From the IMG/VR virus record IMGVR_UViG_2693429748_000017: a stretch of 5,021 nt of DNA; one strand, 5' to 3'. Positions within the stretch are counted from its first letter, which is position 1; the number at the start of each line of letters is the position of its first letter. Source of the DNA: a virus (Duplodnaviria > Heunggongvirae > Uroviricota > Caudoviricetes). Shown piece after piece: positions 1-5,021 of this stretch. A program made the position numbers and the translations under genes. Under the pieces are notes generated by a model. It did not search any database, had not been told where the DNA came from, and worked only from the letters and a program-made list of their open reading frames with translations.

Positions 1-1712
1 GTGGCATCTTTCGGTTGCTTACCCGCAAGCGCGTTAGTCATGGTGGTCGCAAAATTCGGGTCGTTGCCCAGCGCCGCAGCCAGCTCGTTCAGCGTGTTCA
101 GTGCATCAGGTGACGAATCTACAAGGGCGGCAATCGCAGCCATAACGAAAGCCGTGCTTGCGATTTGGGTATTATTCGTTCCCTGTCGCGCAGTTGGTGT
201 TGTTGGCGTTCCGGTCAGTGCAGGACTATTTAAGGGCGCTTTCTTGTTCGTTTCACCCATTACCGCCTTAACCGCTTTTGGCGTTGCCGCCAGTGACTCG
301 GAAGTGCTGTTGGTCGCACTGCTGAGCTGTACTATCCCCTTTTTCGTCGTGCTCGCATCCTCAAGCGCCACGGCGGATGCAATATCCTCTGCCCGTTTTG
401 CTGCTGTCTCGGCGCGCGTTGCCGCGGATTCAGCAGCAACTTTGCTCTGAGATGCAGCCGTCGCACTGCCTGCCGCCTCTGATGCTTTCGTTGTTGCTGT
501 CGTGGCACTACCTTTCGCTGCTGACGCTTGTCTGGTCGCCTCATCTTTTGAAGCAGACGCAGATGATGCCGATGACGCCGCTGAACTGGCTGACGATGCG
601 GCTGCTGCCTTAGAGGAAGCAGCATTGTCTGCTGAAGTCTTTGCATTTGTTTCAGAGGTTTTTGCTGCAGAAGCAGACCTCGCTGCTGCAGTGGCTTGCT
701 CAGTGGCTTTGCCAGCCTTCGTTGTGGCTGTTGAAGCGGATGATGCGGCGCTTTCTGCCGATTTTCCGGCGGCGGTGGCACTGGCTGAGGCCTGCCCGGC
801 ACTTGTTGACGCGGCACTGGCAGATAATGCAGCCGCTGTTTTTGAACCTGCCGCAGCTGAGGCGCTCTGTCCCGCTGCTGTTTCAGAAGACTTAGCGTTC
901 GTCTCGGACGTTTTTGCCGCCTTCGCGGAATTTCCTGCCGCCGTTGCCGAGGAAGCTGCACTACTGGCACTTGATGATGCATTCGTTTCTGAAGATTTCG
1001 CTGCCTCTTTTGAGGCCGCCGCACCCCGTGCCGAGGTGGCAGCTTCTGACGCCTTCGTGGTCGCTGTGGATGCAGAAGTGGCTGCCGATTTTTGTGATGC
1101 TGCGGCATTCGTTTCTGACGTTTTCGCGGCACTGGCGCTGGTAGCTGCCGCGCTTTTTGATGACTCTGCAGCAGCACTTTTTGCTGCTTCACGGGCCTTT
1201 GTCGATGCCGTTCCTGCGCTGGAAGACGCTGACTGAGCCGACGACGCGGCCTGTCCGGCTGACGTGCTGGCGGCACGTGCTGAGGCTGCAGCATCGGTTG
1301 CATGAGTTGCCGCCTCGCTGGCTGATTTTTTCGCGGCTGCCGTATTCTGTGCAACCGCGGAGGCGTTACGTGACACCTCTTCCACCATCTGCTCAAAGCG
1401 GCGCAGTGCCTCCGGTCGGACATCATCCTCCGTCATGGCACCGAGAAAATCATTCAGCGTACCTGGTCTGGAACCTTCATAGACGGTAATGGTCCCGGCA
1501 TGTGAAGGCGGAAAACCTTCAACCAGCAGGGTGACGCTGTACTGACCATGCTCAACATCCATGCTGTAACGTCCGGCTTCATCCGGATTTTCAGAGGCCA
1601 CCGTGTTCACCACCATCGTGCTGCTGGTTCGTCTGGCCTTCAGCACAATGGTGCAGTTCTGTACTGGTTTTCCTGTGCCATCTTTAAGCACGCCAGAAAT
1701 TTTTACTGTCAT
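1..1712 (-). CDS. stf: Side tail fibre protein Stf, N-terminal ~570 codons (ATG at 1712..1710; C-terminal part lies beyond the window start)
   Basis: Manual translation of the minus-strand frame from ATG 1712 gives an open frame to position 1 with no stop: MTVKISGVLKDGTGKPVQNCTIVLKARRTSSTMVVNTVASENPDEAGRYSMDVEHGQYSVTLLVEGFPPSHAGTITVYEGSRPGTLNDFLGAMTEDDVRPEALRRFEQMVEEVSRNASAVAQNTAAAKKSA... then a long Ala/Ser/Thr-rich region, then ...KKGIVQLSSATNSTSESLAATPKAVKAVMGETNKKAPLNSPALTGTPTTPTARQGTNNTQIASTAFVMAAIAALVDSSPDALNTLNELAAALGNDPNFATTMTNALAGKQPKDAT. From memory this matches the N-terminal part of phage lambda Stf. Shine-Dalgarno-like GGTGG at 1723..1719, 6 nt upstream of the ATG. The frame is missing from the supplied ORF track, presumably because its stop is outside the window. 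Confidence 0.88.
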   Translation of the reverse strand, partial: MTVKISGVLKDGTGKPVQNCTIVLKARRTSSTMVVNTVASENPDEAGRYSMDVEHGQYSVTLLVEGFPPSHAGTITVYEGSRPGTLNDFLGAMTEDDVRPEALRRFEQMVEEVSRNASAVAQNTAAAKKSASEAATHATDAAASARAASTSAGQAASSAQSASSSAGTASTKAREAAKSAAAESSKSAAATSASAAKTSETNAAASQKSAATSASTATTKASEAATSARGAAASKEAAKSSETNASSSASSAASSATAAGNSAKAAKTSETNAKSSETAAGQSASAAAGSKTAAALSASAASTSAGQASASATAAGKSAESAASSASTATTKAGKATEQATAAARSASAAKTSETNAKTSADNAASSKAAAASSASSAASSASSASASKDEATRQASAAKGSATTATTKASEAAGSATAASQSKVAAESAATRAETAAKRAEDIASAVALEDASTTKKGIVQLSSATNSTSESLAATPKAVKAVMGETNKKAPLNSPALTGTPTTPTARQGTNNTQIASTAFVMAAIAALVDSSPDALNTLNELAAALGNDPNFATTMTNALAGKQPKDA

Positions 1713-1725
1713 ACTTTTCCACCAA

Positions 1726-1757
1726 TAAAAAAAGCCCGCAGCAGTGACGCCACGGGC
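1726..1757 (-). terminator. Putative intrinsic terminator on the minus strand between lom and stf (stem AGCCCG/CGGGCT with 13-nt loop, followed on the minus strand by a 7-nt U-tract)
   Basis: Seen in sequence: plus strand aaaaaaa(1726..1732) agcccg(1733..1738) cagcagtgacgcc(1739..1751) cgggct(1752..1757). On the minus strand this reads hairpin then TTTTTTT. The loop is long, so folding energy is uncertain. Confidence 0.35.
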
Positions 1758-1863
1758 TTCAGGACAGTGTAACTTTACGTTTCCTCAAACGCAGTTCACC
1801 CCATAAGGTGGATGAACCTGCGTATCATAACAATATTTACAGAAGATAAATCGGCGTCTGTTG

Positions 1864-2463
1864 TCAGATACGGTATCCGATACCAACAATAAATGCATCC
1901 GTTCGCCAGTCACCACTACCGGAACCTTCATAAGCAAGGTCAATGGTCACGGATTCGGTCGGGTTAAACTGCACGCCAGCCCCCCACGCCAGAGACGTGT
2001 TGCTGTGGCGACCGTCATCACTTCCGGTCAGCACATCGTGCGTTTTCCCCTTGTTGTCAGTTACGCGGAGATAATCCCCGGAGAAAGTCGACACACGGCT
2101 GTAAGCCACACCCACCATCGCATACGCGCTGAACCATTCATTCACGCGTACAGACGGCCCCGCCATCACGCTGAACCAGCGGTTACGCACGGAATCTTCA
2201 TGCCAGCGGGTATCGCTGTAGTGCGTTTTTTGCTCATCCTCAGCATTGGCATAACTGAAGGACGTAATCAGCCCCAGCGCGTCCGTAAACTCATAACGGT
2301 ATTTCACGTTAATCCCGTTCAGATTATCGCTGCCGGGAGCGTTCGTACGGGCATGAAGATACCCCGCGCTCAGTGTGGACTGATGTTCAGACGCCCATGC
2401 AGGCGCACCGGATACGGCCAGGCAAATGGCTGCGGACAAAATGGCTGCACAAACTTTACGCAT
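1864..2463 (-). CDS. lom: Outer membrane protein Lom (Ail/Lom family beta-barrel), intact copy, 199 aa
   Basis: ORF 1864..2463(-). N-terminal signal peptide MRKVCAAILSAAICLAVSGAPAWA with AWA|S cleavage motif. Sequence ...STLSAGYLHARTNAPGSDNLNGINVKYRYEFTD...[114 protein letters not shown] closely resembles phage lambda Lom as I recall it. SD-like GAGAGG about 6 nt upstream of the ATG (minus strand aaaagcGAGAGGtaattATG). Confidence 0.9.
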   Translation of the reverse strand: MRKVCAAILSAAICLAVSGAPAWASEHQSTLSAGYLHARTNAPGSDNLNGINVKYRYEFTDALGLITSFSYANAEDEQKTHYSDTRWHEDSVRNRWFSVMAGPSVRVNEWFSAYAMVGVAYSRVSTFSGDYLRVTDNKGKTHDVLTGSDDGRHSNTSLAWGAGVQFNPTESVTIDLAYEGSGSGDWRTDAFIVGIGYRI

Positions 2464-2486
2464 AATTACCTCTCGCTTTTCTGCAA

Positions 2487-2511
2487 TAAAAAAGGCGCCA
2501 TTTCTGGCGCC
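2487..2511 (-). terminator. Putative intrinsic terminator between the J' cassette and lom (stem GGCGCCA/TGGCGCC, loop tttc, U-tract on minus strand)
   Basis: Seen in sequence: plus strand aaaaaaa(2487..2493) ggcgcca(2494..2500) tttc(2501..2504) tggcgcc(2505..2511), a perfect 7-bp GC-rich stem. On the minus strand the hairpin is followed by TTTTTTTATTG. Paralogous to the hairpin at 3861..3878 with a compensatory base-pair change. Confidence 0.5.
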
Positions 2512-2530
2512 CGTATATGGGTTATAAAAT

Positions 2531-3352
2531 TCAGCTGATACTGATGCCTGCGGTGGCTTTCTTCATCACCACAACCAGCAAATCGCTGATACTTGCTGTG
2601 GGATACCAGTTATTCACCAGCCATGCTGACACCGAAAACTCCAGCGTCATGTGGCCGCGACCAGCTGGCATATCAATAACACCACTGTAAATCAGCGTAT
2701 TATCCAGCGCGGTACGGTTATAAATTTCAGCACCGTTTTTCCGTACTATCAGGCGGCATGACGAATAAATATCGTTATTCTCCCGCTCATGTTTAGCGCC
2801 GCTGAATGCCACCGCCGGAATAACAATTTGCCTGTCAAAAGGCTGATCGTCATAAATCCTGACGGTAATGGTCCCTGATGGCCACCGCTCCGGTGCCCGG
2901 GAGTCCCGCGGAAAAGCCTTACCCACTGTTTTGACTATATCGCCTTCAATCTGGTTGGCTGACAGTTTCCCCTTAATCTGACAGTTCTCATTAATTGTGA
3001 CATTGTTGAGCGTCCCGGCGTTCGCATTCACACTGCCACTGATATCTGCATTTTTAGCGGTCAGTTTTCCGTCCGGTGTCAGGGAAAATGCCGGAGGATT
3101 ACCGCCGCTGGTAATGGTGGGAGCCGTCAGGCGTTTCAGGAACACGTCGTTCATGAATATCTGATCGCCCTGACCAACAAACATCGGCTTTGTGTTGCCA
3201 TTCGCAGGATTAATCATCGCAATCCTGTCTGCCGCCAGCAGCACCTGACTCTGCATTCCTGCTGGCGTATTCTCAATACCGGCACCGATACCCGCAATAT
3301 AAAGGCGTCCGTCCTTCATCTGTTGCAGCTTCACAGCCCACATGCTGTTCAG
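2531..3352 (-). pseudogene. 5'-truncated, promoterless 3' segment of a second tail-tip/host-specificity gene J (J'), encoding the C-terminal 273 aa with an alternative receptor-binding domain; stop at 2531..2533
   Basis: Minus-strand translation [273 protein letters not shown]. The first ~120 aa are nearly identical to the J copy at 3901..5021 (nt 2997..3352 vs 4385..4740, same length, ~94% identical by eye). Homology to J starts abruptly at 3352, directly abutting lom-derived sequence. The track ORF 2531..3388 only adds out-of-frame lom-derived codons with a poorly spaced GGAAG before GTG/ATG, so independent translation is doubtful. Confidence 0.75.
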
Positions 3353-3830
3353 ACGCCAGAGACGTGTTGCTGTGGCGACCGTCATCACTTCCGGTCAGCA
3401 CATCGTGCGTTTTCCCCTTATTGTCAGTTACGCGGATATAATCCCCGGAAAAAGTCGACACACGGCTGTAAGCCACACCCGCCATCGCATACGCGCTGAA
3501 CCATTCATTCACGCGCACAGACGGCCCCGCCATCACGCTGAACCAGCGGTTACGCACGGAATCTTCATGCCAGCGGGTATCGCTGTAACGGGTCAGCTGG
3601 CGATTCTTGTCTCCTGCATAGCTGAATGACGTCACCAGCCCCAGCGTATCCGTAAACTCATAACGGTATTTCACGTTAATCCCGTTCAGATCATCACTGC
3701 CGGGAACGTTGGTCCGGGCATGAAGATACCCCGCGCTCAGCGTGGACTGATGTTCAGACGCCCATGCAGGCGCACCGGATACGGCCAGGCAAATGGCTGC
3801 GGACAAAATGGCTGCACAAACTTTACGCAT
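3353..3830 (-). pseudogene. lom: 3'-truncated lom copy (Lom residues 1..159) fused at 3352/3353 to J'-derived sequence; the ORF reads on out of frame to a stop at 3273..3275, adding a 26-aa nonsense tail
   Basis: ORF 3273..3830(-) translates MRKVCAAILSAAICLAVSGAPAWASEHQ...[10 protein letters not shown] followed by [26 protein letters not shown]. Nucleotide homology to the intact lom (1986..2463, offset 1367) ends exactly at 3353. The last 40 residues of Lom (WGAGVQFNP...GIGYRI) are missing. Same SD and start context as the intact copy. Confidence 0.8.
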
Positions 3831-3853
3831 AATTACCTCTCGCTTTTCTGCAA

Positions 3854-3878
3854 TAAAAAAGGCGTCATTCCTGACGCC
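3854..3878 (-). terminator. Putative intrinsic terminator immediately downstream of J (stem GGCGTCA/TGACGCC, loop ttcc, U-tract on minus strand)
   Basis: Seen in sequence: plus strand aaaaaaa(3854..3860) ggcgtca(3861..3867) ttcc(3868..3871) tgacgcc(3872..3878). The minus-strand transcript would read hairpin + UUUUUUAUUG, located between the J stop (3901) and the truncated lom start (3830). Confidence 0.5.
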
Positions 3879-3900
3879 ATTTATTGGGGTTATAAATATT

Positions 3901-5021
3901 TCAACGAATACTGATGCCGGAAGCCGCTTTTTTGGTCACAATCACCGTACAGTCGGTGATATTGCCTGCCCCCTGATTGCCTTTCTGGAAAATCTTAAAC
4001 TCCAGAGTGACGCTACCACCACCACTAGGCATATCAATAACTGCACTGTAACTACCGGGAATGGCACCTTTAGTTTCTCTGGATGCGATTAATACGCCGT
4101 TTTTGCGAACTTCAAAACCATAACCCGTGTATCGCGTGCCTCCTGGGTTATTTCCGCTCCCCGGATCGTCATACGCTATACCGTTAAAAATAATGGGCGG
4201 AATAATAATCTGGCGGTCAAAGTTATGATCATCGCTTATGGTGACTGTAACCGTCCCGTTTGGTGTTTCCGTGTTACCCCACGTACCAGCCTGTTTCGGA
4301 AATGATTTGGATACAGCTTTAACGAAGTCACCTCTGACCTGAGTCGCCTCCAGCATGCCCTTAATCGTACAGTTTTCATTTACCGTGACATTGTTGAGCG
4401 TCCCGGCGTTCGCATTCACACTGCCACTGATATCCGCATTTTTAGCGGTCAGCTTTCCGTCCGGAGTCAGGGAAAATGCCGATGGATTTCCACCGCTGGT
4501 AATGGTGGGGGCCGTCAGGCGTTTCAGGAACACGTCGTTCATGAATATCTGATCGCCCTGACCAACAAACATCGGTTTTGTGTTGCCATTCGCAGGATTA
4601 ACCATCGCAATCCTGTCCGCCGCCAGCAGCACCTGACTCTGCATGCCGTCAGGGGTGTTCTCAATACCGGCACCAATACCCGCGATATAAAGGCGTCCGT
4701 CCTGCATCTGCTGCAGCTTCACAGCCCACATGCTGTTCAGGTTATTATTTGTATCAACCTGAACCTTCTGTATCTGCTGGATTGCCGCACTCTGGTCTTT
4801 CAGTTTCTTATTGACAGTCTGCGTGATTTCATTGCTGACATCCGTAATGGACGTCCTGATTTCAGCCAGGTCAGGCGCAAGCTGACCGTTATCAATCTGC
4901 GTCCACAGCTCCTGAGCCAGATGGGTTTTCCCTATCTCGCCTTTGAAAAAATCCAGATAACCGGATGCATCATCACTCGGCTGACCAACAGCCTCCACGA
5001 ATGCCGATTTGCCAACGGTGT
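3901..5021 (-). CDS. J: Tail tip / host specificity protein J (central tail fibre), C-terminal ~373 codons; 5' end lies beyond the window end; stop at 3901..3903
   Basis: Minus-strand frame is open from the window edge: ...TVGKSAFVEAVGQPSDDASGYLDFFKGEIGKTHLAQELW...[127 protein letters not shown]...KKAASGISIR*. Motifs [59 protein letters not shown] and the C-terminal KKxxxGISx match phage lambda J as I recall it. The track ORF begins at a GTG at 4998, but the frame continues upstream to 5021. Confidence 0.9.
   Translation of the reverse strand, partial: TVGKSAFVEAVGQPSDDASGYLDFFKGEIGKTHLAQELWTQIDNGQLAPDLAEIRTSITDVSNEITQTVNKKLKDQSAAIQQIQKVQVDTNNNLNSMWAVKLQQMQDGRLYIAGIGAGIENTPDGMQSQVLLAADRIAMVNPANGNTKPMFVGQGDQIFMNDVFLKRLTAPTITSGGNPSAFSLTPDGKLTAKNADISGSVNANAGTLNNVTVNENCTIKGMLEATQVRGDFVKAVSKSFPKQAGTWGNTETPNGTVTVTISDDHNFDRQIIIPPIIFNGIAYDDPGSGNNPGGTRYTGYGFEVRKNGVLIASRETKGAIPGSYSAVIDMPSGGGSVTLEFKIFQKGNQGAGNITDCTVIVTKKAASGISIR

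Follow-up and report, generated by a model that had tools for sequence, protein, structure and literature searches.

The two diverged C-terminal modules of gene J encoded in the window (the whole 5,021-nt stretch of DNA analyzed here), hereafter tip A and tip B, are very likely two natural receptor-binding domain (RBD) alleles, each from a separate lambdoid prophage tail module within a single Shigella sonnei genome, their side-by-side order being a scaffolding artefact. This reading draws on direct observations of the sequence pattern of the tips, their family membership, fold and allele distribution, the contrast in synonymous rates between tips and flanks, and an N at the join between the two halves of the window. 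The divergence between the tips is already known biology, and their juxtaposition very likely an artefact of scaffolding: the island-and-loop pattern of J tips, their exchange among lambdoid phages and their use in retargeting lambda have all been published, with structures.

The window is the reverse complement of the entire 5021-bp contig CXBM01000219.1, which originates from a short-read draft genome of S. sonnei. The sole difference between the two lies at position 3353, where the public record has N and the window has T. The genes described here are all on the minus strand. The 3' part of a J gene bearing tip A, recognized from its ORF, translation and Pfam domains, occupies positions 3901..5021, with its stop codon at 3901-3903 and its other end truncated by the contig end. 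The J(A) ORF at 4998..3901 was reproduced, and its translation ends in KKAASGISIR. It contains a Phage_Tail_Tip domain at ~4399-4785 and an Ig_GpJ_C domain at ~3907-4314 (Pfam). The divergent cassette A, the 160-aa receptor-binding domain, spans 3901..4383 according to the alignment coordinates. A terminator-like hairpin followed by a T-run (3861..3878) lies past the stop codon and precedes the lom copy linked to tip A (3354..3830), of which codons 1-159 are present before truncation at the contig join, position 3353, as judged from a Pfam match covering Ail_Lom positions 1-164 of 199 and from alignment with the complete lom.

On the other side of the join, positions 2531..3352 hold the final 273 codons of a second J gene, 'J(B), which bears tip B and is a fragment only because a contig starts here; the ORF 3388..2531 that carries this tip was reproduced as quoted earlier. 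Its Pfam domains are Phage_Tail_Tip at ~3011-3349 and Ig_GpJ_C at 2534-2926, and its divergent cassette B, a receptor-binding domain of 154 aa, spans 2531..2995 by alignment. Past its stop codon lies another terminator-like hairpin with a T-run (2493..2512). It is followed by an intact lom (1864..2463; ORF, Pfam), which encodes a 199-aa Ail/Lom outer-membrane beta-barrel protein and, in sister contigs free of N, is joined without interruption to tip B and stf. The 5' part of stf, the side tail fibre gene, fills positions 1..1712 (ATG at 1712, truncated by the contig end; translation MTVKISGVLKDGTGKPVQNCT...); matching genomes annotate it as 'prophage tail fiber N-terminal domain'. Ordinary J-lom(-stf) prophages are collinear with each half of the window (98.0% and 97.8%), the latter value being that of the J(A)-lom half with gpJ-lom of E. 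coli LD93-1 and NCTC9967, where tip A terminates the annotated gpJ genes. Furthermore, phmmer searches of the PDB matched the J ORFs to lambda J and A8 gpJ structures with E values of 1e-94 to 1e-121.

The initial annotation had described two strongly diverged modules that share anchor motifs, and our alignments bear this out. BLASTP of the whole ORFs gave 65% identity over 283 aa (E 7e-123), a value that blends a 95%-identical stalk with a 44%-identical tip. Between the tips themselves, 67 of 151 aligned columns are identical (44%), and 12 are gap columns. Five blocks of 55-71% identity, devoid of gaps, alternate with four segments of 7-17% identity that contain all indels. The conserved blocks lie at 4297-4383, 4180-4257, 4087-4119, 3997-4047 and 3904-3954 in tip A, and at 2909-2995, 2798-2875, 2723-2755, 2636-2686 and 2534-2584 in tip B. 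The variable loops V1 to V4 lie at 4258-4296, 4120-4179, 4048-4086 and 3955-3996 in tip A, and at 2876-2908, 2756-2797, 2687-2722 and 2585-2635 in tip B, respectively. Identity is clustered along the alignment, as shown by the variance across 9-column windows (p = 1.5e-4, 20000 permutations of the identity vector), and none of the 20000 permutations reached the observed count of zero-identity windows. The islands named by the initial annotation (DDxxFDRQ, NG, IDMPxGxG and KKxxxGISI) are invariant or >90% conserved in 34 tips representing about 13 tip classes.

The four variable segments map to lambda J residues 1007-1017, 1044-1057, 1069-1080 and 1098-1115. A published analysis of 1207 natural J homologues reported peaks of entropy and indels at residues 1012, 1048/49, 1077/78 and 1107 (PMC6646904), and each of these peaks falls inside one A/B variable segment. 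Our segment borders were set after inspection of the alignment, and the four hotspots inside them come from that independent paper.

Both tips belong to the Pfam family PF12421 (Ig_GpJ_C), with scores of 91.6 bits over profile positions 1-134 of 135 for tip A and 135.2 bits over positions 1-135 of 135 for tip B, the curated cut-off being 26.2 bits. In both copies, a PF09327 (Phage_Tail_Tip) stalk directly precedes PF12421. The initial annotation had proposed a common fold, to be checked by structure prediction; AlphaFold monomer models (pLDDT 83.7 for tip A and 85.4 for tip B) revealed an identical strand order, with all 12 gap columns outside strands. Using Foldseek, we matched both tips to solved RBD chains (8xck, 8xcj, 9wca, 9wcb) with E values of 1e-13 to 1e-18. 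The TM scores were 0.72-0.76 for tip A against solved lambda and A8 gpJ RBDs (top match 9wcb_F, 0.76), and 0.82-0.92 for tip B (8xck_F, 0.92; 9wca_F, 0.89). Taken together, the family profile, the C-terminal position after the stalk of a J protein of ~1130-1160 aa and the modelled beta-sandwich fold identify both tips as predicted lambda-type J receptor-binding domains. A search among 1.84 billion representatives returned only 112 proteins, all J-like, with nothing to point to a broader or unexpected family.

Each RBD would be a beta-sandwich of ~155-160 aa atop a near-identical J stalk. In the proposed arrangement, the strands, three turns at one pole (DDxxFD, NG and DMPxGxG), the N-terminal linker and the KKxxxGISI tail would keep the fold and the connection to the stalk; this C-terminal tail, which the initial annotation suggested may be a folding or trimerisation element, is conserved across the family and is a coil in the monomer models. 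The four alternate loops at the opposite pole would be replaced wholesale, indels included, and their lambda equivalents are the bottom loops that enter the porin. The variable segments alternate with the conserved turns, the arrangement that one pole of an up-and-down sandwich should show, and the four loops are predicted to lie at the receptor pole, a placement based on the strand order of the monomer models and the published description of lambda rather than on inspected coordinates. We also considered a split between strand and non-strand residues as the cause of conservation; identity was 47% vs 36% (p = 0.2), so that this split fails to account for the conservation, and a description in terms of alternate poles fits better. 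The lambda RBD contacts LamB through four bottom loops (PMC11101478), and by analogy the tips may be trimeric and bind porins through their four bottom loops.

We observed that synonymous divergence differs strongly between the tips and their flanks. dS was 0.24 in the stalk and 0.17 in lom, as opposed to 2.7 (saturated) in the conserved blocks of the tips, where dN/dS was ~0.1. Furthermore, DNA identity falls sharply at 4384/2996, is regained within ~35 nt past the J stop codon, and reaches 100% from 3863/2496. Saturated synonymous sites in the tips next to flanks at 0.17-0.24 indicate old alleles moved by recombination. In addition, close matches to each tip (94-99% identity) are found in dozens of unrelated lambdoid phages, and the modular exchange proposed in the initial annotation fits both results. 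The tips are probably ancient alleles that move among phages through homologous recombination within the conserved stalk and the spacer between J and lom. Engineered tip swaps at lambda J residue 964 are functional (PMC11338833).

The same data bear on whether the two tips could have arisen in place, by duplication of J-lom followed by rapid or programmed divergence of one copy through mutagenesis like that of a diversity-generating retroelement or through strong positive selection. The direct repeats in the window, with periods of 1367-1388 nt, and the sharp bounds of the divergent stretch would suit such an origin. However, it is already contradicted by the saturation of synonymous sites in the tips compared to the flanks, each tip is 94-99% identical to tips of many independent phages, the 211 mismatches involve all four bases (A = 24-30%) and are accompanied by indels, and the contig contains neither a reverse transcriptase or invertase ORF nor inverted repeats of at least 30 nt. 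We therefore give an in-place origin practically no weight. A diversity-generating retroelement was rejected, as neither adenine-only differences nor a nearby reverse transcriptase were found within the 5-kb contig. Invertible segments of the Mu Gin or P1 Cin type were likewise rejected, as the contig has no inverted repeats of at least 30 nt and no invertase, and the copies are in direct orientation.

Comparison of the tips with J proteins of known phages, including OmpC users, assigned them to separate allele classes. Over all 160 residues, tip A shares 93.8% identity with its counterpart in 'Lambda h434 imm21' (OM418627.1), from which it differs by ten substitutions, and 97-99% identity with those of phages Evi, 2B8, cdtI and 2851. 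The J protein of phage 434 confers OmpC use on lambda (PMC3509688). By sequence, then, tip A is assigned to the phage 434 (h434) host-range class, whose class receptor is OmpC. The tips of JLK-2012, Stx2a phages and PhiR55_1 share 94-97% identity with tip B. Rather than a spare module available for grafting, tip B forms the usual C-terminus of an intact J of 1159 aa in sister draft L006 and of gpJ in E. coli cM8a. Its identity to the A8 tip, itself identical to that of PhiR30_1, is 68% by alignment and 64% by Foldseek; V1, V3 and part of V2 differ, which sets tip B in a separate class at the 70% identity level. A8 gpJ is a natural E. coli prophage tip that was grafted on lambda J at residue 964 (PMC11338833), and its structures are available alone (PDB 9WCA) and in complex with OmpC of EDL933 (9WCB). 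Tip B appears to be a relative of the OmpC-binding A8 class, and its likely receptor is a trimeric porin, probably an OmpC variant. No receptor data for tip-B phages were found in 10.64898/2026.04.02.716166, PMC13190303 or 10.1101/2025.02.28.640725.

These assignments divide the initial proposal of a common fold with swapped specificity: the common fold is supported, and a different receptor for each tip finds no support here, as the h434 class and the A8-like class suggest that both may use OmpC. We regard it as evenly balanced whether both tips bind OmpC, with the difference between them determining the range of OmpC variants or strains accepted and not a change of receptor, an alternative that competes only with the earlier claim of swapped specificity. 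Besides the OmpC use of the h434 class (PMC3509688) and the binding of OmpC by A8, the closest characterized relative of tip B (PMC11338833; PDB 9wcb), the natural tips A8 and 1A2 both use OmpC and accept different variants of it (PMC11338833). Conversely, tip B departs from A8 in V1, V3 and part of V2, a small number of loop changes can move lambda J from LamB to OmpF (PMC6646904), and the receptor of tip B is deduced from its likeness to A8.

The region 2531-4384 described in the initial annotation spans the N at 3353; adjacency therefore rests on a scaffold N, and the two modules are not established as one locus. At the junction, lom codon 159 adjoins J codon ~858, without microhomology and with lom' and 'J out of frame. 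Searches of 5426 complete E. coli genomes, GTDB species representatives and IMG/VR did not recover the junction. An exact protein look-up gave no match to the chimeric lom' product, a failure explained by the N in the public record. In sister drafts, these segments occur with 100% identity but in other arrangements: J(B)-lom-stf is contiguous in N-free sister contigs; draft L007 has B then A, across NNNN; and draft L004 has A upstream of B, its A-linked lom continuing N-free to the 3' end of a lom and a distinct allele of stf. Among the sister drafts bearing Ns in this region, N or N-runs stand at non-collinear joins in five out of six, and those of the sixth (L011) are gaps inside tip B. The join was judged from the public record and these sister assemblies, not from coverage or read pairs. 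Presumably, the assembler made it by setting in series, with one N between, two contigs that would be alternative branches of a repeat. In principle, a single N could also be an ambiguous base in a genuine junction, and the sister strains could be genuinely different, despite the 100% identity of all shared segments.

Illegitimate recombination between two lambdoid genomes could have given rise to a single prophage carrying J(A)-lom'-'J(B)-lom, with the promoterless 'J(B) as a scar or a silent cassette. In the latter case, homologous recombination via the 357-nt stalk repeat could fuse 'J(B) to J, switch the tip and restore J-lom-stf. The window as given runs through the junction gap-free, the stalk repeats (92-94% identical over ~360 nt) and the lom repeats (96-100%) suffice for recombination, the scaffolder joined both pieces, and L004 likewise has A upstream of B. 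Against this stand the N at the junction in the public record, the N-free continuation of the same lom copy in L004 beyond that point, through a 3' end of lom and on to its own stf, the reverse order in L007, the absence of the junction from the genomes and databases searched, the lack of microhomology, and the frame shift between lom' and 'J. No unbroken, reproducible sequence crosses the junction, and a real tandem is improbable. A S. sonnei Lom-J fusion protein (P0003) was considered as an independent second lom'-'J junction and rejected; its junction codon spans N, and the locus contains further N-marked odd joins. Still less probable is a real join at 3353 by which the S. sonnei prophage stores a promoterless second tip, 'J(B), behind a truncated lom. 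If true, a single homologous crossover within the 357-nt stalk repeat would swap the RBD and make lom intact again, which would amount to a one-way host-range switch, based on recombination and kept in reserve.

With a scaffolding artefact as the preferred explanation, the arrangement carries little biological weight, and its practical value is a warning on short-read scaffolds of prophage-rich genomes. Such scaffolds can serialize repeat branches and bring false tandem duplications and false fusion proteins into public databases, such as the S. sonnei 'Ail/Lom family' Lom-J protein, and scans that substitute a base for N take such joins as real junctions. As in other scaffolded short-read assemblies with serialized repeat branches, a single N sits exactly at the non-collinear join, near-identical sister drafts differ in order and partners, and the contig ends where both lom copies begin to differ, a likeness read here from assembled records, not from reads or the assembly graph.

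The tips themselves closely resemble known J proteins. They match the family of the lambda J RBD (PF12421; PDB 8XCK, closed; 8XCJ, with LamB) end to end, at the same place after the Phage_Tail_Tip stalk, and share with it the modelled fold (TM 0.72-0.92), the motifs DDxxFDRQ, NG, DMPxGxG and KKxxxGIS, and the gene order J-lom-stf. In contrast, they are only 38-44% identical to it, all four variable loops differ in sequence and length, and the lambda receptor is LamB. The host-range determinant of phage 434 is of the same tip class as tip A, the gene being located here in a S. sonnei prophage with its 5' part outside the contig. A8 gpJ is 64-68% identical to tip B, the best structural match between them scoring TM 0.82-0.89. 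The divergence boundary in the window lies ~14 residues downstream of the A8 graft point (residue 964), and the differences in V1, V3 and part of V2 make tip B a class of its own at the 70% level. Finally, the islands and segments that distinguish A from B follow the same pattern as described for the J 'specificity region' (residues 960-1132; Maddamsetti et al. 2018, PMC6646904), with no substantive difference, and the window provides one further allele pair.

The initial annotation of this region implied a locus carrying two J receptor-binding modules. All features of interest lie on the minus strand, where the 3' part of a first J gene enters at 5021 and ends at a stop at 3901, its C-terminal domain (tip A) occupying 3901-4383. 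It is followed by a terminator-like hairpin with a T-run (3878-3861) and by the first 159 codons of lom (lom', 3830-3354). Directly abutting lom' is a second, 5'-truncated J gene ('J, 3352-2531), whose final 273 codons, ending in tip B (2531-2995), are present. Another terminator-like hairpin with a T-run comes after this J stop (2512-2493). Beyond it, lom is complete (2463-1864) and is likewise followed by a hairpin with a T-run (1760-1731); the side tail fibre gene stf then starts at 1712 and is cut by the contig end, so that its 5' part is present. The two post-J hairpins differ in stem sequence with pairing preserved; the total of terminator-like sites in the window is not above shuffled expectation. 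Within stf (489-1130), repeats in a 33-nt register encode Ala/Ser-rich units (...KSAATSA..TSETNA...), which produce long spurious ORFs in the other frames and also on the plus strand (332-1426 and 502-1236). Identity between the lom alleles is 96-100% outside one patch (3600-3640 vs 2233-2273; AGDKNRQLTR vs ANAEDEQKTH, 77% nucleotide identity), which resembles a Lom-barrel surface loop that was exchanged or evolves fast.

Reverse-complemented, the window corresponds to the full length of contig CXBM01000219.1 (5021 bp) in the Shigella sonnei draft assembly GCA_001260235.1, in which the 'J product is annotated as a 262-aa protein (CSO99376.1). The sole difference between record and window is position 3353, an N in the record and a T in the window, which is exactly the lom'|'J junction. 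A real junction at this site, for which we see very little chance, or more specifically a stored tip cassette, which is less probable still, has to contend with this N, with the lack of microhomology at the join, where 'J is not in frame with lom', and with the absence of the junction from 5426 complete E. coli genomes, GTDB representatives and IMG/VR. Furthermore, sister S. sonnei drafts contain the same segments at 100% identity, arranged in other ways. N-free sister contigs read J(B)-lom-stf, and draft L007 has the reverse order, J(B)-lom'-NNNN-'J(A)-lom-stf. In draft L004, the lom linked to tip A continues from the very same base, N-free, to a lom 3' end, followed by a terminator of its own and another stf allele. 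An N or N-run marks a non-collinear join in five of the six sister drafts with N in the region; in L011, the remaining draft, the runs of N lie within tip B as ordinary gaps. Both halves of the window match ordinary prophages of complete E. coli genomes: 1-3352 is collinear with E. coli cM8a at 98.0%, where tip B ends an intact gpJ, and 3353-5021 with LD93-1 and NCTC9967 at 97.8%.

We consider the implied two-module locus very probably an assembly artefact. In the simplest reading, the S. sonnei genome would hold two lambdoid tail modules with a stalk (the J region directly ahead of the tip), spacer and lom in common; short reads would have failed to phase these shared stretches, so that the scaffolder would have set two alternative branches in series. 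Some scaffolders write a single N where the estimated gap is negative, which would fit two branches competing for one interval. The A-linked lom of L004 (4380-4592, equivalent to window 3354 onward) has lost about 90 nt internally, between two CTGGCG repeats, which frameshifts it ('...HSNTSLAH*'); this copy is probably a pseudogene belonging to the second prophage, and the stf allele beyond it reads MAVKISG...IQLKAKRNSTT. A 386-aa protein (P0003, L003 3122-4282) that bears the public name 'Ail/Lom family outer membrane beta-barrel protein [Shigella sonnei]' fuses Lom(1-105) to the J C-terminus by translation through a scaffold N, a database artefact like the window junction.

Comparison of the two tips confirmed strong divergence around short conserved anchors, and re-translation reproduced both peptide sequences originally quoted. 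BLASTP gave 65% identity over 283 residues for the two J ORFs, a figure that conceals two unlike stretches. Of 119 stalk codons, 115 agree in the residue that they encode, whereas in the tips (the last 154-160 residues) only 67 of 151 aligned columns (44%) are identical, with 12 gap columns. Five gap-free blocks at 55-71% identity alternate with four variable segments, V1-V4, at 7-17%, to which all gaps are confined. This clustering is non-random (window variance, permutation test, p = 1.5e-4), and the observed number of zero-identity windows was reached in 0 of 20000 permutations. In lambda numbering (tip start I978), the variable segments span 1007-1017, 1044-1057, 1069-1080 and 1098-1115; block borders were placed by eye, and the hotspots that these segments enclose come from an independent publication. 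Maddamsetti et al. (2018) aligned 1207 natural J homologues and found variation concentrated in a 'specificity region' (960-1132), with coincident sequence and indel peaks at 1012, 1048/49, 1077/78 and 1107, two of which are residues needed for lambda's laboratory shift to OmpF (PMC6646904). The pattern of islands and variable segments is thus an already published property of the J family.

A search of 1.84 billion representative proteins returned 112 relatives of tip A, all J-like, forming about 13 tip classes at 70% identity. Over 34 tips, the motifs named in the initial annotation are at least 90% conserved and 12 positions are invariant (G18, D19, T46, D51, D52, F55, D56, R57, N95, G121, G123 and G156, tip A numbering). 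A split into strand and non-strand residues did not account for conservation in the tips. In the structural models, V1-V4 are every other inter-strand connection, with the conserved turns DDxxFD, NG and DMPxGxG lying between them. In an up-and-down sandwich, such alternation gathers the variable loops on one pole, opposite the conserved turns, suggesting that the variable pole faces the receptor and the conserved pole the stalk. In lambda, four bottom loops of the receptor-binding domain (L1-L4) insert into LamB, as shown by Ge and Wang (2024; PMC11101478). The family-wide conserved KKxxxGISI tail at the C-terminus, which the initial annotation proposed as a putative trimerisation element, is coil in the monomer models.

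Both tips match Pfam PF12421 ('Tip attachment protein J, C-terminal receptor binding domain') end to end, preceded in both copies by the Phage_Tail_Tip stalk domain, and both copies match solved lambda J chains and the 'A8 gpJ 713' chain (E 1e-94 to 1e-121). AlphaFold monomer models of 3904-4383 (tip A) and 2534-2995 (tip B), built from a 34-sequence alignment, reached pLDDT values of 83.7 and 85.4, respectively, with the same beta-strand order. Foldseek placed them on the closed lambda fibre (8xck; TM 0.72 for A, 0.92 for B) and on A8 gpJ with OmpC (9wcb; TM 0.76 and 0.82, respectively), and also matched both to 8xcj (lambda with LamB) and 9wca (A8 gpJ). With the same strand order and this placement on solved J chains, the predicted common fold is well supported for the monomers. 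Both models also have weak matches outside J (C1q, BclA, the Pgp3 C-terminal domain and 4-1BBL; TM 0.35-0.45), all trimeric jelly-roll heads, which hints that the J tip is closer to the C1q/TNF-like fold than to a classical Ig domain.

DNA identity between the A and B units is 92-94% in the stalk, 50-60% from the NENC codons through to the stop codon, about 67% across the stop codon plus the ~35 nt of spacer next to it, and 100% over ~120 nt from 3863/2496 (the remaining J-lom spacer and the lom start). Synonymous divergence reaches a saturated 2.7 in the conserved tip blocks, compared with 0.24 for the stalk and 0.17 for lom, indicating that the tips are much older than their flanks; dN/dS in these blocks (~0.1) indicates purifying selection on the tip scaffold. 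Tip A recurs at 97-99% identity in many otherwise different phages (Evi, 2B8, cdtI, 2851 and Stx2c phages), as does tip B at 94-97% (JLK-2012, many Stx2a phages and PhiR55_1). This near-unchanged recurrence and the dS contrast bear out modular exchange of the tips. Programmed diversification was not indicated, as the mismatch spectrum has no adenine bias and the window contains no inverted repeats of 30 nt or more.

The general reading of the initial annotation, a same-fold, exchangeable specificity module, was right, as was its sequence observation. Both are textbook-level for lambda J and now structure-backed. Brödel et al. (2024) used residue 964 of lambda J as the graft point for natural J C-termini and obtained functional particles (PMC11338833); the divergence boundary in the window lies ~14 residues downstream of this graft point. 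Tip A shares 93.8% identity with the 'Lambda h434 imm21' tip, and when lambda carries the J gene of 434 it uses OmpC, the phage 434 receptor (PMC3509688). Closest to tip B is A8, a natural J C-terminus that binds OmpC and was solved with OmpC of EDL933, although tip B differs from it in several variable loops. The published origin of A8 is a private strain collection; the J tip of phage PhiR30_1 (PV340558.1) is identical to the engineered 'A8' gpJ tip of PDB 9WCA/9WCB over the 155 residues compared. By analogy with A8 and 1A2, natural tips that both use OmpC but accept different OmpC variants (PMC11338833), tips A and B may well both use OmpC and differ in the variants that they accept.
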